Source: Octopus vulgaris (Eukaryota). From it: a stretch of 64,000 nucleotides of DNA. The notes beneath the pieces were generated by a model. That model was not told where the DNA came from and did not search any database. It saw only the letters and a list, made by a program, of their open reading frames with translations. The DNA lies in assembly GCA_951406725.2 (NCBI GenBank), contig OX597815.1, forward strand, positions 207,576,001 to 207,640,000, read 5' to 3'. The translations under genes were made by a program, and so were the position numbers. Below, in pieces: positions 5,081 through 58,356 of this stretch (positions are counted from its first letter, which is position 1; every line of letters begins with the position of its first letter).

Positions 5081-5480
5081 GGCATAGGAGTGGCTGTGTG
5101 GTAAGTAGCTTGCTAACCAGCCACATGGTTCCGGGTTCAGTCCTACTGCATGGTACCTTGTCCAAGTGTCTTCTACTATAGCCTCGGGCCGACCAATGCC
5201 TTGTGAGTGGATTTGGTAGACGGAAACTGAAAGAAGCCCGTTGTATATATATGTATATAAAATATATGTATGTGTATGTGTATATGTCTGTGTTTGTCCC
5301 CCAACATCGCTTGACAACTGATGCTGGTGTGTTTACGTCCCCGTCACTTAGCGGTTCGGCAAAAGAGACTGATAGAATAAGTACTAGGCTTACAAAGAAT
5401 AGGTCCTGGGGTTGATTTGCTCGACTAAAAATTGGTGCTTCAGCATGGCCACAGTCGAATGACTGAAACAAGTAAAAGAG
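5081..5480 (+). mobile_element. tRNA-derived SINE family A (representative full copy)
   Basis: Head GGCATAGGAGTGGCTGTGTGGTAAG...GGTTCAGTCC, internal TA/TG microsatellite, GTAAAAGA tail. Other copies: 1028-1585+, 6001-6408-, 7257-7660+, 15172-15548-, 20790-21193-, 36143-36525+, 43017-43344- (headless), 44409-44818+, 53151-53521+, 57652-58072+, 58186-58606+, 59208-59610+, 60525-60930+, 61023-61399+, 63416-63820+. Confidence 0.9.
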
Positions 5481-8400: not shown

Positions 8401-8994
8401 CATTTATTCTTGTCCCCCTATCAGTCTTTTAGCTTCTCAGCACCTGGCATAAAGCCACTTGTCCCTTCCTTCATCATTAGGATCTTCTCTTTTAACTTAT
8501 TTAGTAACCTCAATAGCACCAGTGGGATTTTAAAAAGTACCCAATACAAACTGTAAAGTGGTTGGTGTTAGGATGGACATCCAGCCATAGAAAACCTGCC
8601 AAAACTAATTCTAGAGGTCAGTGTAGCCCTGTGGCTCACCAGATCCTGTCAAATTGTCCAGCCCATGCCAATATGGAAAACTGATGTTAAATGATTATCT
8701 ATCATTCTCTCGTATATCTAGCTGTCTGTGTGCACCTATCCGTAGGTAGATAAGTACCACACTTTGTTAACCCTTGCATAATTGCAGTAAAGGTCCATAT
8801 ATCTTATGTCTGCAATTGCAATGTGTGAAGTTATGGAAGGCAGCTTCTACAGGAATCTAGATTATCACAACACAAATCTTTTCAATGTAATTGGAAAGAG
8901 AAACCTGTAAATAAGATCAGAAATGCACTTTTCTGAGCCAAGTGTCATCAGACGTTTAATACCTAGAGTTGAAAAGTTAATATAAACATATAAT

Positions 8995-9651
8995 GCCTAT
9001 AGCTGACGATCTTGGAGAGGCACAAAACCTATAGCTGACGACTTTGGAGAGGCGCAACGCCTATAGCTGGCGATCTTGGGGAGGCGCAACGCCTATAGCT
9101 GACGATCTTGAAGGGGCGTAACGCCTATAGCTGACGATCTTGGAGGGGCGTAACGCCTATAGCTGACGATCTTGGAGGGGCATAACACCTATAGCTGAAG
9201 ATCTTCGAGAGGCGTAACGCCTATAGCTGACGATCTTGGAGGGGCATAACACCTATAGCTGAAGATCTTCGAGAGGCGCAATGCCTATAGCTGACGATCT
9301 TGAAGGGGCGTAACGCCTATAGCTGACGATCTTGGAGGGGCATAACGCCTATAGGTGACGATCTTGGAGGGGCATAACGCCTATAGATGACGATCTTGGA
9401 GACGTGCAACGCCTATAGCTGACGATCTTGGAGAGGCGCAATGCCTATAGCTGACAATTTTGGAGGGGCGCAACGCCTATAGCTGACGATCTTGGAGAGG
9501 CGCAACGCCTATAGCTGACGATCTTGGAGAGGCGCAACGCCTATAGCTGACAATCTTGGAGAGGCACAACACCTATAGCTGACGATCTTGGAGGCATAAC
9601 ACCTATTGCTGACAATCTTGGAGAGGCGCAACACCTATAGCTGACAATCTT
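8995..9651. repeat. 32-bp minisatellite, ~20.5 units
   Basis: Unit GCCTATAGCTGACGATCTTGGAGAGGCGCAAC; one 30-bp unit; the variant GAAGATCTTCGAG recurs 64 bp apart. Confidence 0.95.
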
Positions 9652-11858
9652 CAACTATTTATACTTGAAGCATTTCATCATATTTCTCTGCAGTTCCCTA
9701 CAGTATTTTTATTTTCCAAGTACCAGCTTACTATAATATTCAATAAAGGAAAAATATAATCAACTTAATCTCTGTTTTTAATATCTTCAAAATGACTATA
9801 TTTGTTGGCCTATAGGATGCACCTTAGCCTAAGCTATTCTTTTGTAAATAAAATTACCACTAAAATAATGTTTTAATTATTCCACTTACCTGTATAACCT
9901 TGTGTTATTACTGGTCATTATAAGCAATTTATTGCATCCACATTCTATATAAATATACCATAGGCAATTGTTCACCGATAGATGGCAGCACATGTTTTGT
10001 AAGCATACATACGTTCTGAGCGAGTTTTGAGCCTACATTGAGTCCATTGGACACAGGATTTTTAAAACCATTTTGGGGTAAAAAAGGTGTGTCTTATAGG
10101 CCATCAAATATATAATTAAAACATGAAAGGTGTGTTTTTCATTAGTAATGGGCTACAATTTTCTTTTTTCTATTTTAACCCATTTTTTTTTTGTACTTTC
10201 CCAATTTCACAGTTTTTTTTTTTTTTTCGGTGTAACTGTCCTTTACTCTCAACATTGTTTCATTATTCCCATTTCTTTCTCTCCTATGTACAAAATTGTC
10301 CCCAATATTCCTTTATTTTATGGTGTTCATTCTAATCCTCTTTCATTGGTTTTGTTCCTCTGCTTTTATAAATGACAATCAGAATAAGAACCATTTAGCT
10401 TTAGCAAAGTTTGCAAACCTAGTTCAGAACTTAGTATTATCACAAAACAAGACAAATTTTGTTTGGATGATAAATAGATGAAATTATTTTCTCTTCATGT
10501 ACCATACCTACAGGCATCCAGTAATCAGACCTCTTTGTCCTCCTTCCTCACACAGATTAACACATTACTGGCTGGTCACTCTGAAACCAGCGAGGGTGAC
10601 CATTGTACCATTGTGTATCTTTGTCTTCCCTGCACTAGTGTAGATCGGTTACAATGATGGGTGTTCTAGTTGATCTGATCAACGGAACAGCCTGCTCATG
10701 AAATTAATGTGCAAGTGGCTGAGCACTCCACAGACATGTGCACCCTTAATGTAGTTCTCAGGGAGATTCAGTGTGACACAGAGTGTGACAAGGCTGGCCC
10801 TTTTGAAATACAGGTACAAGAGAAACAGGGAAAAAGTGTGAGAGAGAAAGTTGTGGTGAAAGAGTACTCCCATCCCCAACCTCACCCTCATGGAACTTTA
10901 GGTGTTTTTGCTCAATAAACACTCACAACGCCTGGTCTGGGAATCGAAACCGTGATCCTAAAACCACGAGTCCGCTGCCCTAACCACTGGGCTGTTGTGC
11001 CTCCACACAGGTGCAGAGTAATACACATCTAAAGCAGTCTGTCTGATCTTTGTCAACCCACTTTGAAATATGTTATTCTACTTATCTTCAATGGTGTGAA
11101 AAATGTTTTCAATTTTTCTCTTGCAAAACACTTTTCTGTTAATCTCCGGACATGATATAAAATTAAAAATATAATAAATTATGATAATTACCTAATGGTA
11201 GAATACAAATGTATACAGCAGCTGTCCTATTGAAACTGATGTTCAACAGATGCGTCATGAAGATAAAACAAAGCAGTCAAGTGGAGATCTGTTAAGATGG
11301 CTACTGAAGATAAAACAAAGGCTTGAAAACTAGCCAGTTCGTTGGAAGATGGCTAAGCAGTCTGGTACTTGTACAGCAGATGCATCATACAGTTTTTGTG
11401 TTTGATTTTTAAACTGAATGATAACAGGCGTTCCTTACAATTTCCTCTTTGCAAATTTTTCTTGATTCATCCTTGTTGCAACGATGGTTAAACATGTACT
11501 GTGCATGGCTGCTGTCAGTCGGCTTATTAGAAACTAAATTGCAAGTGTTTTGGTCAGCTTGAGCTATTAAACAAGCTCTTGGTCTGCTGTCAGCAATTGT
11601 GTGAACAACTTGCAATATTGCCTGAAAAATTACTGTTTATGCATCAGCTATAAATTCAACATAATGGAAAAATGTGGAAAGACTTTTAAATAATAGAACA
11701 TGAATCAGTGCAATTCTCCATTTCCCTACTTTCCTTACAAATGGAAGATTTAAGTCTATTTAATAATTTTAGCTGGTGTTCTCTTGTTGAATATGTAAAC
11801 TCATGCAAGTTATGGTTCGTTTCAGTGTTTTGTGAATTGTTCAAAATTGCGTAACATA

Positions 11859-12371: not shown

Positions 12372-12606
12372 GGCAGGTTCATTTTAGCACTCATTTCCAA
12401 AACCCACCTGTTTAATGTACATTTGCAGTGGTGTGTATCATCCTTTGTAAATATTTTTTCAGTATGATTAGACAAGCAGCTGCTAACAGAAGTTGCAGCG
12501 GCTTGTCTAATCATACTGAAAAAATATTTACAAAGGATGATACACACCACTGCAAATGCACATTAAACAGGTGGGTTTTGGAAATGAGTGTTAAAATGAA
12601 CCTGCC
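12372..12606. repeat. Near-perfect palindrome, ~115-bp arms, unclassified foldback element
   Basis: GGCAGGTTCATTTTAGCACTC...CTGCTAAC-AGAA-GTTGCAGC...GAGTGTTAAAATGAACCTGCC; explains mirror ORFs 12359..12550 and 12428..12727. Confidence 0.85.
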
Positions 12607-15554: not shown

Positions 15555-16117
15555 TATATTTATCAAAAGAAAAACAGGATGCAAAGGATTTAGCGGTACA
15601 TAAGTTTCTGGCTTTATTAGACAGTTTACATCAATGCATAATTGATGTAATATGTATGTCAATAGCCTTCTTCAGCCGCACACAATTACCACACCGAAGA
15701 CATGTATTACATTATAAGTTTGGGAAGCAAATCCTCATAGTCACATACAGCAGAGCGAGACACCAAAACAAAAACAAATCGTCCATACCGTCTTTCATCA
15801 AGTGAAAGACGGTATGGACACTTTGTTTTTGTTTTAGTGTCTCGCTCTGCTGTATGTGACTATGAGGATTTGCTTCCCAAACTTATAATGTAATACATGT
15901 CTTCGGTGTGGTAATTGTGTGCGGCTGAAGAAGGCTATTGACATACATATTACATTAATTATGCATTGATATAAACTGTCTAATAAAGCCAGAAACTTAT
16001 GTACCGCTAAATCCTTTGCATCCTGTTTTTCTTTTGATAAATATACCCTACCACCTACACCACTAACTGGCGTATACAGGTGCTTACTGTTATCAAGTAT
16101 TCACCCTGAATTTTTTT

Positions 16118-27495: not shown

Positions 27496-27830
27496 TAACA
27501 CAAAAGCAATTGCAGCATGGCAGATGTTTGTAAGCTATTTAAGAACATACAAAAACCATTTAGTTTCACTTCAACATTTAAATTTAATTTGTGTCAAAAT
27601 ATTTTCACTGACAAAATTTCGTGCTGAGATGCAGCAGAAGGTTTTATCAGTGAACAGGTTGTGCTTTCAAAGTGACAAAAATATTTTTAACACAAATTGA
27701 ATTAAAATGTTGAAGTGAAACCAATGGTTTTTGTGTGTTCTTAAATGACTTACAAACATCTTCCATGCAGCAATTGTTTTTGTTACAGCACACGATATCA
27801 GATCAAGTCACTTGCTATGCAAGTACAGCT
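27496..27830. mobile_element. Inverted-repeat PLE-like element, same family as 49638-49828
   Basis: Arms GCAATTGCAGCATGGCAGATGTTTGTAAG... / ...CTTACAAACATCTTCCATGCAGCAATTG; tail after 27785. Confidence 0.65.
27645..27692 (+). ncRNA. Decayed second copy of the G3-C8 hammerhead-like family
   Basis: TATCA-GTGAACA-G-GTTGT-GCTTTCAAA-GTGAC-AAAAATATTTT-TAACA. Same family as 49718-49764 with CpG-type decay; the GTGAACA core is retained. Confidence 0.45.
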
Positions 27831-33292: not shown

Positions 33293-33409
33293 TCAAGGGT
33301 CTATAATAGGTACTGACAATCGTGATTGTTTAGGTTCGATTTCCAGTGATGCTCTATAAGCTTCTTCATCTGTCATAAGTCTGCTGGGATCCAATAAATA
33401 GTTGGTTAC
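33293..33409 (-). CDS. RasGRF: RasGRF-like last coding exon with stop codon
   Basis: CAG| acceptor. VTNYLLDPSRLMTDEEAYRASLEIEPKQSRLSVPIIDP*, TGA at 33293-33295; the SL-IEPK motif ends CDC25 domains. Confidence 0.95.
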   Translation of the reverse strand, partial: VTNYLLDPSRLMTDEEAYRASLEIEPKQSRLSVPIIDP

Positions 33410-48249: not shown

Positions 48250-48329
48250 CTATGAAGTGCGTCTCTCATGTTCTTGAACCTTCCTTCAGAGGAAACTAAT
48301 GTTTGGAGCTTATCAATCATTTGTCGTGT
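48250..48329 (-). CDS. RasGRF: RasGRF-like exon (CDC25 domain)
   Basis: TAG| acceptor, |GTAAGT donor, 80 nt, phase 0/2. TRQMIDKLQTLVSSEGRFKNMRDALH(R). Confidence 0.95.
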
Positions 48330-48719
48330 CTAAATACAAAAAGAAAGACAATTTAAAAGATTAACAATGAATCATAACAAAAGCATTTACATAGTTATTA
48401 AATTCTACAAGACTAAAAATGCTTTCTTTGAATTTAGTAATAAAGTAAGTACTGTAGGCAAATACGGTAATTTACTGTGACTCCAATACTCTATTTGTAT
48501 TCGGTTTTGTATTTCCTCCTATTCATCATCAACATCATCATCATCGTTTAACATCCGCTTTCCATGCTAGCATGGGTTGGACGATTTGACTGAGGTCTGG
48601 AGAACCAGATGGCTGCACCAGACTCCATTCTGCTCTGGCAGTTTCTACAGCTGGATGCCCTTCCTAACGCCAACCACTTCGAGAGTGTAGTGGGTGCCAG
48701 TCAGGTGGTACAGGCAACG

Positions 48720-48995
48720 GCCACCCCCACTATAGACTTGGTCACCTAGGTAGCAGAAGCTATCAACAACTTCTAGTTTCTCCCCCTGGCATGTGATGGA
48801 ATCAGTTTTCTGAGCATCTGCAGTGTTTATTGCCCCTGTGCATCTGCTACTCACAAATGCTATCTTCCTGGTTAACCTTCCTTTGATGCTGCTGCACCTC
48901 TTATGCATCCATAGCTTACACTGGGTACATCTTATAGTGTTTCTACCTGCACCTTTTCTACAGATCAAGCAGGGCCATCTACCTGAAGGGGTTTA
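48720..48995 (-). pseudogene. RTE-clade LINE internal fragment
   Basis: CRKGAGRNTIRCTQCKLWMHKRCSSI...EKLEVVDSFCYLGD in ORF 48645..48968. Confidence 0.75.
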
Positions 48996-49637
48996 TTTGC
49001 AATAAATTGCTGATACTTTTGCAATACACAAAATACTTTAATGATATTTTAAAAATACAATTCCTAATAATATTTATCACAAGATTTTTAAAACTTTGAA
49101 TGGGTATAAGGGCCCAGGAGAATAAAATAAGAATCACAGGGGTCCAAAGGCAAAAATGGTTGGGAACCACTGATATAGAAGACACCCATGGGAAATTTTC
49201 TAATATTTAAAATTATTAACCAATGAATAATTTTCACAAAAGGTCTAATGTCTGGTAATTATGTGTTAGAGGATACTTTGCTGAGGAGGACTAATAAAAC
49301 TGAAACATACTCATAGTTGTCATTGTAATTACTAAAGATCAGATTCATCTTTCATTGCATACATCTTCATTTAATTTTTTAATCAGTCTAGATTTCAAAA
49401 TTCCCTTTTTCTTGCTGCCCTTGGTAAAAACTCTCATTAACTTCAATTTTTTTCCTTCTCGCTTGCTTTGAACACACAACATTTAGTATGTTAGCCTGCA
49501 GTTAAACTACGTATGTCACCCTTGGTAAGTATGCTAATGTCACTGAATATGGTACTTGCTGTTATAACCTTACAATTTAAAATCCATACCTAACTTCTCT
49601 TTCAACAACTCATTAAATACAAGTTTATAATAGACAA

Positions 49638-49828
49638 TTGCAGCGTGGAAGGTGTTTATAAGCCATTTAAGAAACACACAAAAACCGTTAGATTCACTGC
49701 AACATTTAAATTTAATTTGCCAAAATATTTTCGCCACTTTGAGACCGCGACCTGTTCACTGACATGCAGTGAATCTAACGGTTTTTTAGTGTTTCTTAAA
49801 TGGCTTATAAACACCTTCCATGCTGCAA
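49638..49828. mobile_element. Inverted-repeat PLE-like element (~64-bp arms) with the G3-C8 hammerhead-like motif in the spacer
   Basis: TTGCAGCGTGGAAGGTGTTTATAAGCCATTTAAGAAACAC / GTGTTTCTTAAATGGCTTATAAACACCTTCCATGCTGCAA. Confidence 0.7.
49718..49764 (-). ncRNA. Hammerhead-like motif with G3-C8 swapped core
   Basis: Minus strand: UGUCA-GUGAACA-G-GUCGC-GGUCUCAAA-GUGGC-GAAAAUAUUU^UGGCA. Stems I and II are fully paired with G-U wobbles; stem III is palindromic AAAUAUUU. Confidence 0.6.
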
Positions 49829-50204: not shown

Positions 50205-50402
50205 CTGCTTTGATATTCTTTCCCACATTTTCTTCATTCTAAAAACTGAACTGTTCACAAATGCAGCACATATCTGTAAGACACCATTATAATTATGCAT
50301 GCAGCGACAAATATCTGCGATTGCAGCCCACTTTTCAAGACATGCTACTCTGTCTTGTATATTGGTACGTCCGACTATTTCCGACACTACCAAACGACTC
50401 AC
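50205..50402 (-). CDS. RasGRF: RasGRF-like exon (CDC25 domain core)
   Basis: CAG| acceptor, |GTAAG donor, 198 nt. VSRLVVSEIVGRTNIQDRVACLEKWAAIADICRCMHNYNGVLQICAAFVNSSVFRMKKMWERISKQ; lies within ORF 50160..50420. Confidence 0.96.
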
Positions 50403-53400
50403 CTGAAAAATTTGAAGCAAAATTTTAATAATATAAGGAGAGAAGATAAAATTATAATAGGTAACACATATTTACATCAACCTTCAAAAATATTTTTCCT
50501 TTTCAAAATCTTAGCTGTATTCCATGTTTAACAAGCAAATTTCATAGTATTATTATAATTATTTTTCCTTCTAGTTGAATACAGTCTCCAATTATCAGCA
50601 CATTACCTTTTACAGTCCTACTGTGTGGAACTGTCGGCAAGCGTCCTCCGCTATATCCTTGGGCTAACCAAAGACTTATGACTGGATTTAATAAACAGAA
50701 ACTGAAAGAAGCCAGCTATGTGTGTGTATGTATGTACGTATATATATATAGGCTTCTATGCCTTGACTGGCTTCTGTACCAGCGGCACGTAAAAAGCACC
50801 AACCAATCATGGCCGCTGCCAGCCTCCCCTGGCACCTGTGCCGGTAGCACATAAAAAGCACCCACTACACTCATAGGGTGGTTGGCATTAAGAAGGGCAT
50901 CCAGCTGTAGAAACACTGCCAGATCAGACTGGAGCCTGGTGCAGCCTCCTGGCTTCCCAGACCCCGGTTGAACTGTGCAACCCATGCTTGCACGGAAAAC
51001 AGATGTTAAATGATGATGATGATGATATTATATATAAACACACACACACGTTATCTTGCTTTGATATCACAAGATAATCATGAAGAAATGTTATCAACAT
51101 TGAAGCAGTGTTCTTCATTTCCGATCTTCCAAAATCATGTTTGGTCAAAGAGAAATATTACCCTACTTGCAAACAGGAGATGGTTGCTGACAGGAAAAGT
51201 ATCCAGCCATAGATATCTGTCTCAACAAATTACATCTAACTCGTGCAAGTATGAGAAAGTGGAGGTTAAGACTATGATGATTATGGCTCCTATTACAATT
51301 AGCCTGCTTGCAAAGACCTGTTAAGGCAATCGAAATCAAATTCGATGACTGGCATCCGTGCTAGTGGAGCGCTAAGAGCACCATACGAGCATTATCATTG
51401 CCAGAGCAACAAGCTGGCCTCCGTGCCGGTGGCATTTAAAAAGCACCATTTGAGCACCCAGTATAAGACAATGAGTAATGTGGTTGCATTTTCTATCCCA
51501 CACACTGTTATTGCAGTCTTTTATGTCTGGTCATAATGATTCTGTGCATTAAAATCAAGAGTATGATACATGCTAGAATTATCTATTATTCCCAAGTGTT
51601 CAATCATTTCTTTCCATACATCTTTTTCAGCAAGTTGCAATTTGGGCTATTCCGTGACAGAATTCAGCAAATGTGAAATAAAATTCATACTTCCCATTTA
51701 AGAAAAAATTACACACACATATATTTACTGTTTTTGTCAGTTTTTTAATGAAACTGCACCAATAAGTAAAATAGCTATGAGCCATAAGAGTTTTGTATAA
51801 AACAATTGATCATTACGGAATATACAATATTACATGTTCCAGAATTACTTCACAAATTCTCCCATGGAACAGTAGAGAGTGTTAAAATATTGTAATGAAA
51901 AATAAAGGTTTTGAATTTAAATTCAGCACAGAGATGTGGGTTTACATAAATATTTTATTTATTTATGCGCCCTTTTCAAGCCTAGCCAGGCTCATGGGCC
52001 TGGTTTCTCATTTTCTATGGCATATGTGTTCCCTCCTGCTGGACGGAACGCCAGTCCATTGCAGCGTTACTCAAGAAACAGGAAGAGAGAATGAGAGAAA
52101 GTTGGGGGCGAAAGAGTACAACAGAGGTCACCACCAGCCCCTGCCGGAGCCTCATGGTGCTTTAGGTGTTTTTGCTCAATAAACACACACAACACCCGGT
52201 CTGTGAATCGAAACCATGATCCTCCAACCACGAGTCCACTGCCCTAACCACTGGGCCATTGCGCCTCCACGAATAAATGTGCCCTTTTTAAAGCCTAGCC
52301 AGGCTCATGTGCCCGGTTTCCCAGTTTCAATGGCGTATGTATTCCCCAGCTGGATGGAATGCCAGTCCATCGCAGCGTTACTCATTTTTGCCAGCTGAGT
52401 GGACTGGAGCAACGTGAAACGAAGTGTTTTGCTCAAGAACACAACACGTTGCCCAGTCCAGGCAATCTTACGATCATGATGCTGACACCCTTACCACTAA
52501 GCTACGTGCCTCTACTTACATAAATATAGGGTTCCCAAAAATGTTTAATGGTGGAATCAGCATGAAATATGAGACTAATTAGGCAGAAAAAGGTAAGCTA
52601 TTGCAGCATCACTTTTGCATTTCATCCTGTTTGGTAATCGTAGCTATCAATAAGAACATTCAGAAAGAAAAGTACACAGCAAAAACATTTCAATATCTTT
52701 TTTGCTATTGGGATTAATGTATCTTCACATTGATGTGATCCATGGCATAGCATTCCCTGAGCTAGCAGAATCGTTAGCACGCCGGGCAAAATGCTTAGCG
52801 GTATTTTGTCTGCCGCTACGTTCTGGGCTCAAATTCTGCCAAGGTCGACTTTGCCTTTCATCCTTTCGGGGTCGATAAATTAAGTACCAGTTACACACTG
52901 GGATCGATGTAATCGACTTAATCCGTTTGTCTGTCCTTGTTTGTCCTCTCTGTATTTAGCCCCTTGTGGGTAGTAAAGAAATAAGTATTCCCTAGTGTCA
53001 GGAATGAGCACTCCATTATAACTTGTGGTTACATTTAGAGCATATAATGAACTTACTGTATACAGTGTTCAGATGCACTACAACTCATCAGAAAAAGTAG
53101 CCAAAACTGTACAAACAGTACATAGAATATATGCACAGGAAGTGAATAGTCGCAGGAGTGGCTGTGTGGTAAGTAGCTTGCTTACCAACCACATGGTTCT
53201 GGGTTCATTCCCACTGTGTGGCACCTTGGGCAAGTGTCTTCTACTATAGCCTCGGGCCGACCAAAGCCTTGTGAGTGGATTTGGTAGACGGAAACTGAAA
53301 GAAGCCTGTTGTATATATGTATATATGTATGTGTGTATCTTTGTGTGTCTATATTTGTCCCGCCAACATCGCTTGACAACCGATGCTGGTGTGTTTACGT

Positions 53401-56594: not shown

Positions 56595-57817
56595 CTGGAA
56601 AACAGATGAAAATACATTTTTTTTTTACAGTTTACAAATTCAAACTATTCTTCATCATCATTATCATTGTTTAATGTCCGTTTCCCATGCTAACATGGGT
56701 TAGACGGTTCTACTGGGGTCTGGGAAGCCAGGAGGCTGCACCAAGCTCCAGTCTGATCAGGCAGTGTTTCTACAGCTGGATACCCTTCCTAACGCCAACC
56801 ACTCCACGAGTGTAGTGGGTGCTTTTTACGTGCCACCAGCACAGGGGCCAGAGGAGACTGGCAAACGGCCACGATCAGTTGATGTTTTTACATGTCACCG
56901 ACATGGATGCCAGTCAGGTGGTGCTGGCATCTGACCAAAACTTTTTCTCAAAGGAAAATTAAATTTTCTTTTCTTTTCTTTTTTTTTTTCAGAAACAGGA
57001 AGAATGGATTCATGATAAATAAAATGAAGAATGAAAAAAGGAAAATGATAGGGAGCTGTGTATATGGAAGTGCAAATTTTAGGTTTAGCATATTAGGCAT
57101 GGCTTGTAAATAATGGAAAATTTTAGAAGAGAATATAATGTCTACAGTGGAATTCATTAAATATTTCCAAACAAAAACCTGTGTATCTTTTGATGATTAT
57201 GTAACCATGACACCAACTGATCCCTTAACATCAAATGGTCTGGAAAACTGTACCCACCCTATCTTCAAGTAACCTGGAACTGCACTCTCTCCATTACCAA
57301 TACAAAAAACCTGCAGCTCCCCATTAACATGACCCCTGCTGATATCAGATGAGAAATAATCAGTTGAGTTGGCAAAGGCTTCTCATAATGAATGCCACCT
57401 CTTCCATGTATGTCAATGCCAGGTTCAACAACTGAAGTTAAGAAGCTTCCTCAGTTGTGTCTGGCCTCTAACAACATCTCAGAAGAAACTAGACTCTGGA
57501 CCAGGGCTGGCCAACCTGAGGCCTGTGGGCCGCATGCAGCCCACAGACTTTTATCTCACAATCCTCTTGATACTTTCTTGAAATGGGTTTATTTAAACGA
57601 AAATTTCTAAAATTTTATCAAAAATTAAAGACTGTAAAGAAAACAAAAAAAAGGAGTGGCTGTGTGGTAAGTAGCTTGCTTACCAACCACATGGTTCCGG
57701 GTTCAGTCCCACTGCGTGGCATCTTGGGCAAGTGTCTTCTACTATAGCCTCGGGCCAACCAATGCCTTGTGAGTGGATTTGGTAGAAGGAAACTGAAAGA
57801 AGCCTGTCGTATATATG

Positions 57818-57854
<37 letters not shown>

Positions 57855-58356
57855 TTGTGTGTCTGTGTTTGTCCCCCTAGCATTGCTTGACAACCGATGC
57901 TGGTGTGTTTACGTCCCCGTCACTTAGCGGTTCGGCAAAAGAGACCGATAGAATAAGTACTGGGCTTACAAAGAATAAGTCCCGGGGTCGATTTGCTCGA
58001 CTAAAGGCGGTGCTCCAGCATGGCTGCAGTCAAATGACTGAAACAAGTAAAAGAGTAAAAAGAGTAAAAGAGTAACAGAGTACTGTTTTTGCAATGATAA
58101 TATTTCCTGTTGAATCAATAATCATTCATTCATTATTGTAATAATAGCATGAGAAAGCAAAATGCTTTCAATTCTATCAGAATCAGGCATAGGAGTGGCT
58201 GTGTGGTAAGTAGCTTGCTTACTAGCCACATGGTTCCAGGTTCAGTCCCACTGCATGGCACCTTGGACAAGTGTCTTCTACTAAAGCCTCAGTCTGACCA
58301 AAGCCTTGTGAGTGGATTTGGTAGACGGAAACTGAAAGAAGCCCGTCGTATATATG

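Follow-up and report, generated by a model that had tools for sequence, protein, structure and literature searches.

The RasGRF-like locus and the hammerhead fold

The window, i.e. the whole 64,000-nt stretch of octopus DNA analysed here, carries exons of a RasGRF-like gene on its minus strand, and the intron between two of them contains a hammerhead-like motif. A protein labelled Octopus vulgaris agrees with the genome at 100 %, which makes this species the most likely host. The features discussed below are:

50205..50402, minus strand: host exon 5' of the intron, RasGEF domain of the RasGRF-like gene (Pfam and PDB match)
48251..48329, minus strand: host exon 3' of the intron, bounded by AG/GT, in which the RasGEF frame continues
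49718..49764, minus strand: type I minimal hammerhead fold with a swapped core (layout read from the letters and from folding)
49630..49764, minus strand: right arm of a palindrome, running from stem I to a short 3' end and without tail; pLTR, truncated at its 5' end, of a Neptune-type Penelope-like element (subfamily A)
49765..49828, plus strand: left arm, an inverted partner from the same pLTR, more truncated and lacking the ribozyme
49664..49666, minus strand: ATG matching the likely ORF start of the element, 56 nt downstream of the predicted cut
27500..27783, no single strand (palindrome): older, second inverted pLTR pair, subfamily A'

The frame of the upstream exon matches the RasGEF domain (PF00617, E 1.7e-19), and in the PDB it comes closest to 2ije (E 9.6e-22), which we take to be RasGRF1, far ahead of SOS (~1e-5). 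Exon 48251..48329 had no Pfam match by itself; its presumed likeness to RasGRF was judged by eye from sequence motifs. Since the gene lies on the minus strand and the exons at 50205 and 48329 flank the motif, the motif is in sense orientation within the intron, as had been proposed, and the exon borders agree with this. A PHD-finger-like Pfam match (E 5.7e-6, 48648-48992, minus strand) occurs in the same intron, and a weak ASK_PH match (E 1e-4, below the cut-off, 50927-51157, minus strand) in the upstream intron. Elsewhere, the window contains a SINE-like dispersed repeat (a 226-nt segment in 11 copies, at 5086-5311, 57652-57877 and nine more places, dense at 57-64 kb), a tandem array with a 32-nt period at 8895-9721, and two long hairpins, probably other inverted-repeat elements, at 15724-15876 and 12432-12546, with sub-threshold Rfam microRNA matches.

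Read on the minus strand, the 5' strand of stem I is 49764-49760 and its 3' strand 49722-49718. The core letters are G3-U4-G5-A6-A7-C8-A9, with G3 at 49759, C8 at 49754 and A9 at 49753, followed by an extra nucleotide 9.1 (G at 49752). Stem II has five base pairs (49751-49747 with 49737-49733), G12-A14 occupy 49732-49730, helix III is a 6-nt palindrome (49729-49724), and U17 at 49723 closes a UUU triplet, which places the predicted cut between 49723 and 49722. Triplet and cut site came out the same on re-reading, and the claim that the stems can pair throughout, in part as G-U, was borne out, with all 10 pairs of stems I and II possible and 3 of them G-U. The canonical core has C3 and G8 (CUGANGA); the window motif has G3 and C8, which can form a Watson-Crick pair, and it is filed as a hammerhead variant and not as a canonical member. 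All other letters looked for are present (U4 G5 A6, A9, G12 A13 A14, A15.1-U16.1, G10.1-C11.1 and an NUH triplet). The motif also has the extra nucleotide 9.1, the short palindromic helix III and the pLTR location of the minimal, dimer-type hammerheads of Penelope-like elements. On their own the 47 nt were no more stable than shuffled sequences (z -0.78), and Rfam, at E up to 10, showed no hammerhead model among the best 150 of 197 rows. A shorter pattern of the motif had 7,110 exact genome matches with G3/C8 compared to 0 for the reversed control, and the motif is therefore genuine and repeat-borne. A swapped-core fold in sense orientation within a RasGRF-like intron is thereby confirmed.

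The motif forms the loop of a palindrome of ~200 nt (z -17.7) that was overlooked in the first reading and is a retrotransposon remnant: the left and right arms pair into a long hairpin. The window copy is a solo pLTR fragment without tail, and no ORF remnant of the element was found in the 64,000 nt. Two G-U changes have affected its stem II, for which the predicted probability of the correct register is 0.19, compared to 1.0 in a young copy of subfamily B and 0.69-0.99 in a subfamily A copy. Stem I is clamped by the long hairpin with a probability of 0.91-0.98.

The only other copy in the window, at 27.6 kb, belongs to the pair at 27500..27783. The earlier note had described the copy at 27645-27692 as sharing the GTGAACA core. 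This holds, G3 and C8 both being present, but the copy lies on the plus strand, antisense to the gene, and its G12 has changed to A. The likely stop is near 33293, in the exon taken, by its motif, to be the last of the host gene, and this copy lies ~5.5 kb beyond it. Host regulation through this copy as a dimer partner was ruled out by the wrong strand and the lost G12. In the opposite, inverted arm of the same pair (27500-27625), stem II has been deleted between two GAA repeats.

A Neptune-type Penelope-like element

A search of the genome gave 1,146 first-look candidates. The copies form inverted pairs with one arm shorter than the other and often adjoin (TA)n. A tail of ~60 nt was present on one arm only in 27 of 29 palindromic loci, on neither arm in 2 and on both arms in none. 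A one-sided tail combined with a pLTR has been described as the signature of Penelope-like elements (PMC8557442, PMC11167929). Longer copies have an upstream microsatellite-rich spacer and then an ORF with the reverse transcriptase (RT) motif YVDD, a C-X3-C-X2-C linker and a GIY-YIG domain. This domain was recognised as PF01541 (E 2.7e-6, in copies outside the window), and homologues of the linked ORF are labelled reverse transcriptase, while Pfam RVT_1 did not score on the element ORF. A single ORF with RT and C-terminal GIY-YIG, the mark of Penelope-like elements with endonuclease (EN+), is thus found in linked copies elsewhere and not in the window. Similarly, the inverted 5'-truncated pLTR with one-sided tail is a property of the family, the window copy itself having no tail. 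The linker that joins RT to EN has the form CX2-5CxxC characteristic of Neptune, being C-X3-C-X2-C in subfamilies A and B. Judged from its sequence the element is of Neptune type, the clade name resting on the linker and the tree holding unnamed relatives only. A non-LTR retrozyme, with short units in head-to-tail tandem that each bear a hammerhead, was considered and rejected, as the copies seen are solo, in inverted pairs or ORF-linked.

Subfamily B is young: its copies are nearly identical, and the longest open frames reach 839 and 1025 codons, the frame of 1025 taking in an inverted 5' piece. An ATG is found 56 nt downstream of the predicted cut, and a homologous peptide opens the 1312-codon frame of a sister family, D. 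The tail is therefore likely to be the start of the ORF.

Positions 3 and 8 in the lineage and in its sister families

The swap was suggested in the earlier note to be probably ancestral to the family. The other genomic copies support this and show a family trait, not decay. The subfamily A pattern with positions 3, 7 and 8 left free had 2,088 exact genome matches, and among the first 100 listed (tallied by eye) 94 had G3 and C8 and none had C3 and G8. In subfamily B, G3 and C8 were present in 16 of 16 young loci. No other letter made up at least 3 % at G3 or C8 in any of four public contig sets (4/4, under four organism codes). G3/C8 is thus conserved in other copies, which the idea of a swapped-core family required. 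The older, decayed family E, whose motif has C7, six base pairs in stem II and a helix III of four letters, had G3 in 10 of 15 copies and C8 in 13 of 15, several of its positions being fixed by the search pattern. The tree holds no E protein; the decay of this family and a spacer identity of 0.67 give its presumed place in the age order. Family E was brought to light by a loose-pattern hunt for unrelated G3-C8 families, which otherwise stayed at chance level (381 matches compared to 558 in the control).

The swap is present in subfamilies E, A', A and B. From E to A/B, N7, loop II and the length of helix III changed, helix III remaining palindromic with a difference of two letters, and the swap outlasted these changes as well as those in stem II. 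The agreement of copies inside one family reflects only its master, and the evidence for constraint therefore lies in the comparison between families.

The C3/G8 version of the pattern had 259 genome matches, which belong to a separate family, C; 7,110 to 259 is not a ratio of family sizes because the pattern flanks fit A/B. Family C shares the ORF-start peptide with the A/B element, and its endonuclease is ~40 % identical to that of B. The young family D has C3-G8 in 30 of 30 loci. Its copies (L237-L266, e.g. L242) are ~99 % identical, with open frames of 1312 codons, and have A9 changed to C. This A9C form was the commonest among the first 100 of 5,292 matches listed, and C9 was also seen in a metagenome locus (L267).

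A scan with positions 3, 8 and 9 left free found 11 motifs in 62 metagenome loci with related ORFs; the remaining 51, many of them too short, had none. In 8 of the 62 a sense motif follows the ORF match at 98-182 nt, six with C3-G8 and two with U3-A8. One further locus (L328, motif 1,043 nt away, weak ORF match) was excluded from the tree and from the count of 10 lineages, and antisense matches in L294 and L297 were left uncounted. Five shuffled controls gave 0-3 matches each, none with 3 and 8 paired. Every lineage compared has a Watson-Crick pair at 3-8, and no mismatched pair was found among them. The permutation p for this pairing was 0.003 with 10 lineages and 0.017 with 6 collapsed ones, both values being optimistic given the kinship of the lineages. 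In the protein tree, which has long outgroup branches, a short row for C and none for E, A+B is sister to C+D (support 99/99) and stands among C3-G8 and U3-A8 rows. This placement makes G3-C8 derived on the tree, and from the sequences compared the swap is most likely a derived state. In an alignment of 8 rows only, the stem II pair 10.4-11.4 has also changed on both sides, from A-U to G-C.

A U3-A8 pair can be reached from C3-G8 by two transitions with a U-G intermediate, whereas G3-C8 takes two transversions without a paired intermediate. The reverse complement of positions 3-8 in family E is identical to the following six letters in their C and D form, and in C and D themselves positions 3-8 match that mirror at three of six. 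One template switch across this short imperfect palindrome would set positions 3, 7 and 8 together (G3, C7, C8). By a rough estimate, made after seeing the data, all three changes would fit the mirror by chance about 1 time in 64. The mirror creates a rival hairpin; this hairpin was dominant in three of the 15 E copies and none of the 5 A/B copies, in which N7 has become A. Later changes may have weakened the rival hairpin while the hammerhead was kept. The swap may accordingly have arisen by one template switch, and with such a one-step origin selection need only have kept the double change and need not have brought it about.

Predicted cleavage, alternative readings and known systems

The 3-8 pair forms in the active hammerhead conformation. 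The motif very likely represents a hammerhead variant whose activity is weak and dependent on a helper. By analogy with characterized ribozymes, intact elements are likely to cut slowly after U17. Minimal hammerheads of Penelope-like elements have been reported to cleave weakly, as dimers (PMC4209133), and the Poseidon hammerhead of Anolis to need the protein of the element (PMC11167929). The statement in the earlier note that engineered G3-C8 double mutants regain the activity lost in single mutants was right as to direction but too strong as to extent, the restoration described being only partial (PMC11167929, PMC8495972). In tandem elements, two copies would join via the palindromic helix III, G3 would pair with C8 and place the 2'-OH of residue 8, G12 would act as the base, and the RNA would be cut after U17, 56 nt before the ORF start, slowly enough for most reverse-transcribed templates to stay uncut. 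Helix III never formed in monomer predictions and its self-duplex had only -0.2 kcal/mol; folding two free copies of the window motif together did not give a double hammerhead.

The 5' ends of copies were compared with the predicted cut in 78 arms chosen by the tail alone. Only one arm started at the cut, by an internal deletion, in a weak test in which ~0.8 would be expected by chance; in the canonical family C the figure was 0 of 21. The ends exclude frequent use of cleaved templates, but not cleavage itself. Starts at -61 to -52 relative to the cut were found in 25 of the 78 arms. This cluster of A/B ends (L177-L206, L329-L383), 52-61 nt upstream of the cut, lies at a branch-point, pyrimidine and AG stretch resembling a 3' splice site, and is a candidate for a spliced template or a start site. 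An untemplated G before the common start, considered as a mark of capped templates, occurred in 5 of 14 and was unsupported.

The reading we prefer, to which we give a probability of about 0.7, is that the motif is the pLTR hammerhead of a Neptune-type Penelope-like element, that its lineage is naturally G3-C8 and probably cuts itself at a low rate, either as a dimer or together with the element protein, and that the worn intronic copy is likely inert. A more far-reaching version, in which this is the first natural G3-C8 lineage of its kind, created by a single template switch, catalytically competent and retained by selection while an active retrotransposon passed through four or more successive subfamilies, is tentative and stands somewhat below even odds. 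The main competitor of the preferred reading is that the swap is a dead relic: an accidental template switch set G3 and C8, cleavage was lost or became negligible, and the fold has been kept for structural reasons (protein binding, translation or splicing near the ORF start) or by hitchhiking. The exact mirror in family E and the absence of a pile-up of 5' ends at the cut are what such a relic would leave, and mutants of the Poseidon hammerhead leave insertion in vitro unaffected (PMC11167929). Family D has spread despite its change of A9 to C and, as Naiads also spread without canonical hammerheads (PMC8557442), cleavage may be dispensable. However, U4, G5, A6, A9, G12-A15.1 and U16.1 stayed constant from E to B (several of the E positions being fixed by the pattern) while changes occurred at N7, in loop II and in the flanks, helix III changed by two letters with its palindrome kept, and no lineage was seen with a mismatched 3-8 pair. 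We consider the relic unlikely, though a serious competitor.

Far less probable is an effect on the gene through cleavage of the RasGRF-like pre-mRNA by the intronic copy, a cut that the earlier note had thought possible. The sense orientation, the complete core letters and the clamped stem I would all suit such a role, but stem II is predicted in register at only 0.19, and the window offers no sense-strand partner with an intact core, its one other copy being antisense and without G12. More than 7,000 copies lie on both strands of the genome, the window has no ORF remnant, and no sign of conservation marks this passenger fragment. With stem II decayed and no partner in the window, control of RasGRF by this copy is unsupported; it probably does nothing to the host gene. 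A foldback or MITE-type DNA element with a hammerhead-like string by chance has been largely refuted and has a negligible probability. It would account for the near-perfect palindrome, for the 47 nt folding like shuffles and for the lack of a hammerhead among the best 150 of 197 Rfam rows, but not for the one-sided tail, the variable junctions and the direct link to RT and GIY-YIG, nor for the canonical hammerheads that sister families carry at the same place.

The preferred reading makes the swap interesting as a family and ordinary as a single intronic copy, and no new way of RasGRF regulation has been shown. A lineage that has flipped 3-8 yet kept it paired, and that has young, intact ORFs and normal-core sisters within one genome, is a natural experiment. 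It is also an instance of two transversions in a catalytic core for which a one-step origin can be proposed. Standard descriptors have a blind spot for the swapped core. If the lineage is indeed selected and competent, it would be genomic proof that Penelope-like elements, whose hammerheads have been described as unclear in function and as possible parasites (Craig 2021, PMC8557442), need a cleavage-competent fold, and searches with CUGANGA fixed would miss whole families with many thousands of copies. Natural 3-8 covariation has already been published as U3-A8 (PMC3088659, PMC4209133). In the literature searched, which was without Lünse 2017 (the likeliest place for an earlier record) and the Craig and Perreault supplements, G3-C8 was found only in engineered variants (PMC11167929, PMC8495972, PMC3884650) and in no natural hammerhead. 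This natural core variant of the hammerhead in an active retrotransposon lineage of Penelope-like elements is real and probably unreported.

The octopus motif resembles the minimal type I hammerheads described from Penelope-like elements of Metazoa (Cervera and de la Peña 2014, PMC4209133) in its pLTR location, the nucleotide between 9 and 10.1, G10.1-C11.1, the short palindromic helix III, the NUH triplet and the predominance of solo or inverted copies. Fig. S3 of that paper shows 56 representative motifs, all with C3-G8 except for two with U3-A8 and one with U3-G8; none has G3-C8 and none is from a cephalopod. Natural U3-A8 variants (Perreault 2011, PMC3088659; Schistosoma Cercyon) are likewise a both-sided natural change of the 3-8 tertiary pair, but by two transitions compared to two transversions in octopus. 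With the Neptune clade (Craig 2021, PMC8557442) the element shares RT, the cysteine linker, the C-terminal GIY-YIG, the inverted 5'-truncated partner, the one-sided tail and the (TA)n neighbourhoods, whereas the tail of ~60 nt is longer than the 30-40 nt described for Neptune. The engineered C3G/G8C form of Anolis Poseidon (Frangieh 2024, PMC11167929) has the same swap, the same element class, a ribozyme near the ORF start and a tail made of the first codons of the ORF. The Poseidon ribozyme overlaps the ATG, whereas that of octopus lies 56 nt upstream of it, and C3G/G8C in Poseidon is a laboratory double mutant with partial rescue, whereas in octopus the swap is the wild type of a spreading Neptune-type lineage.
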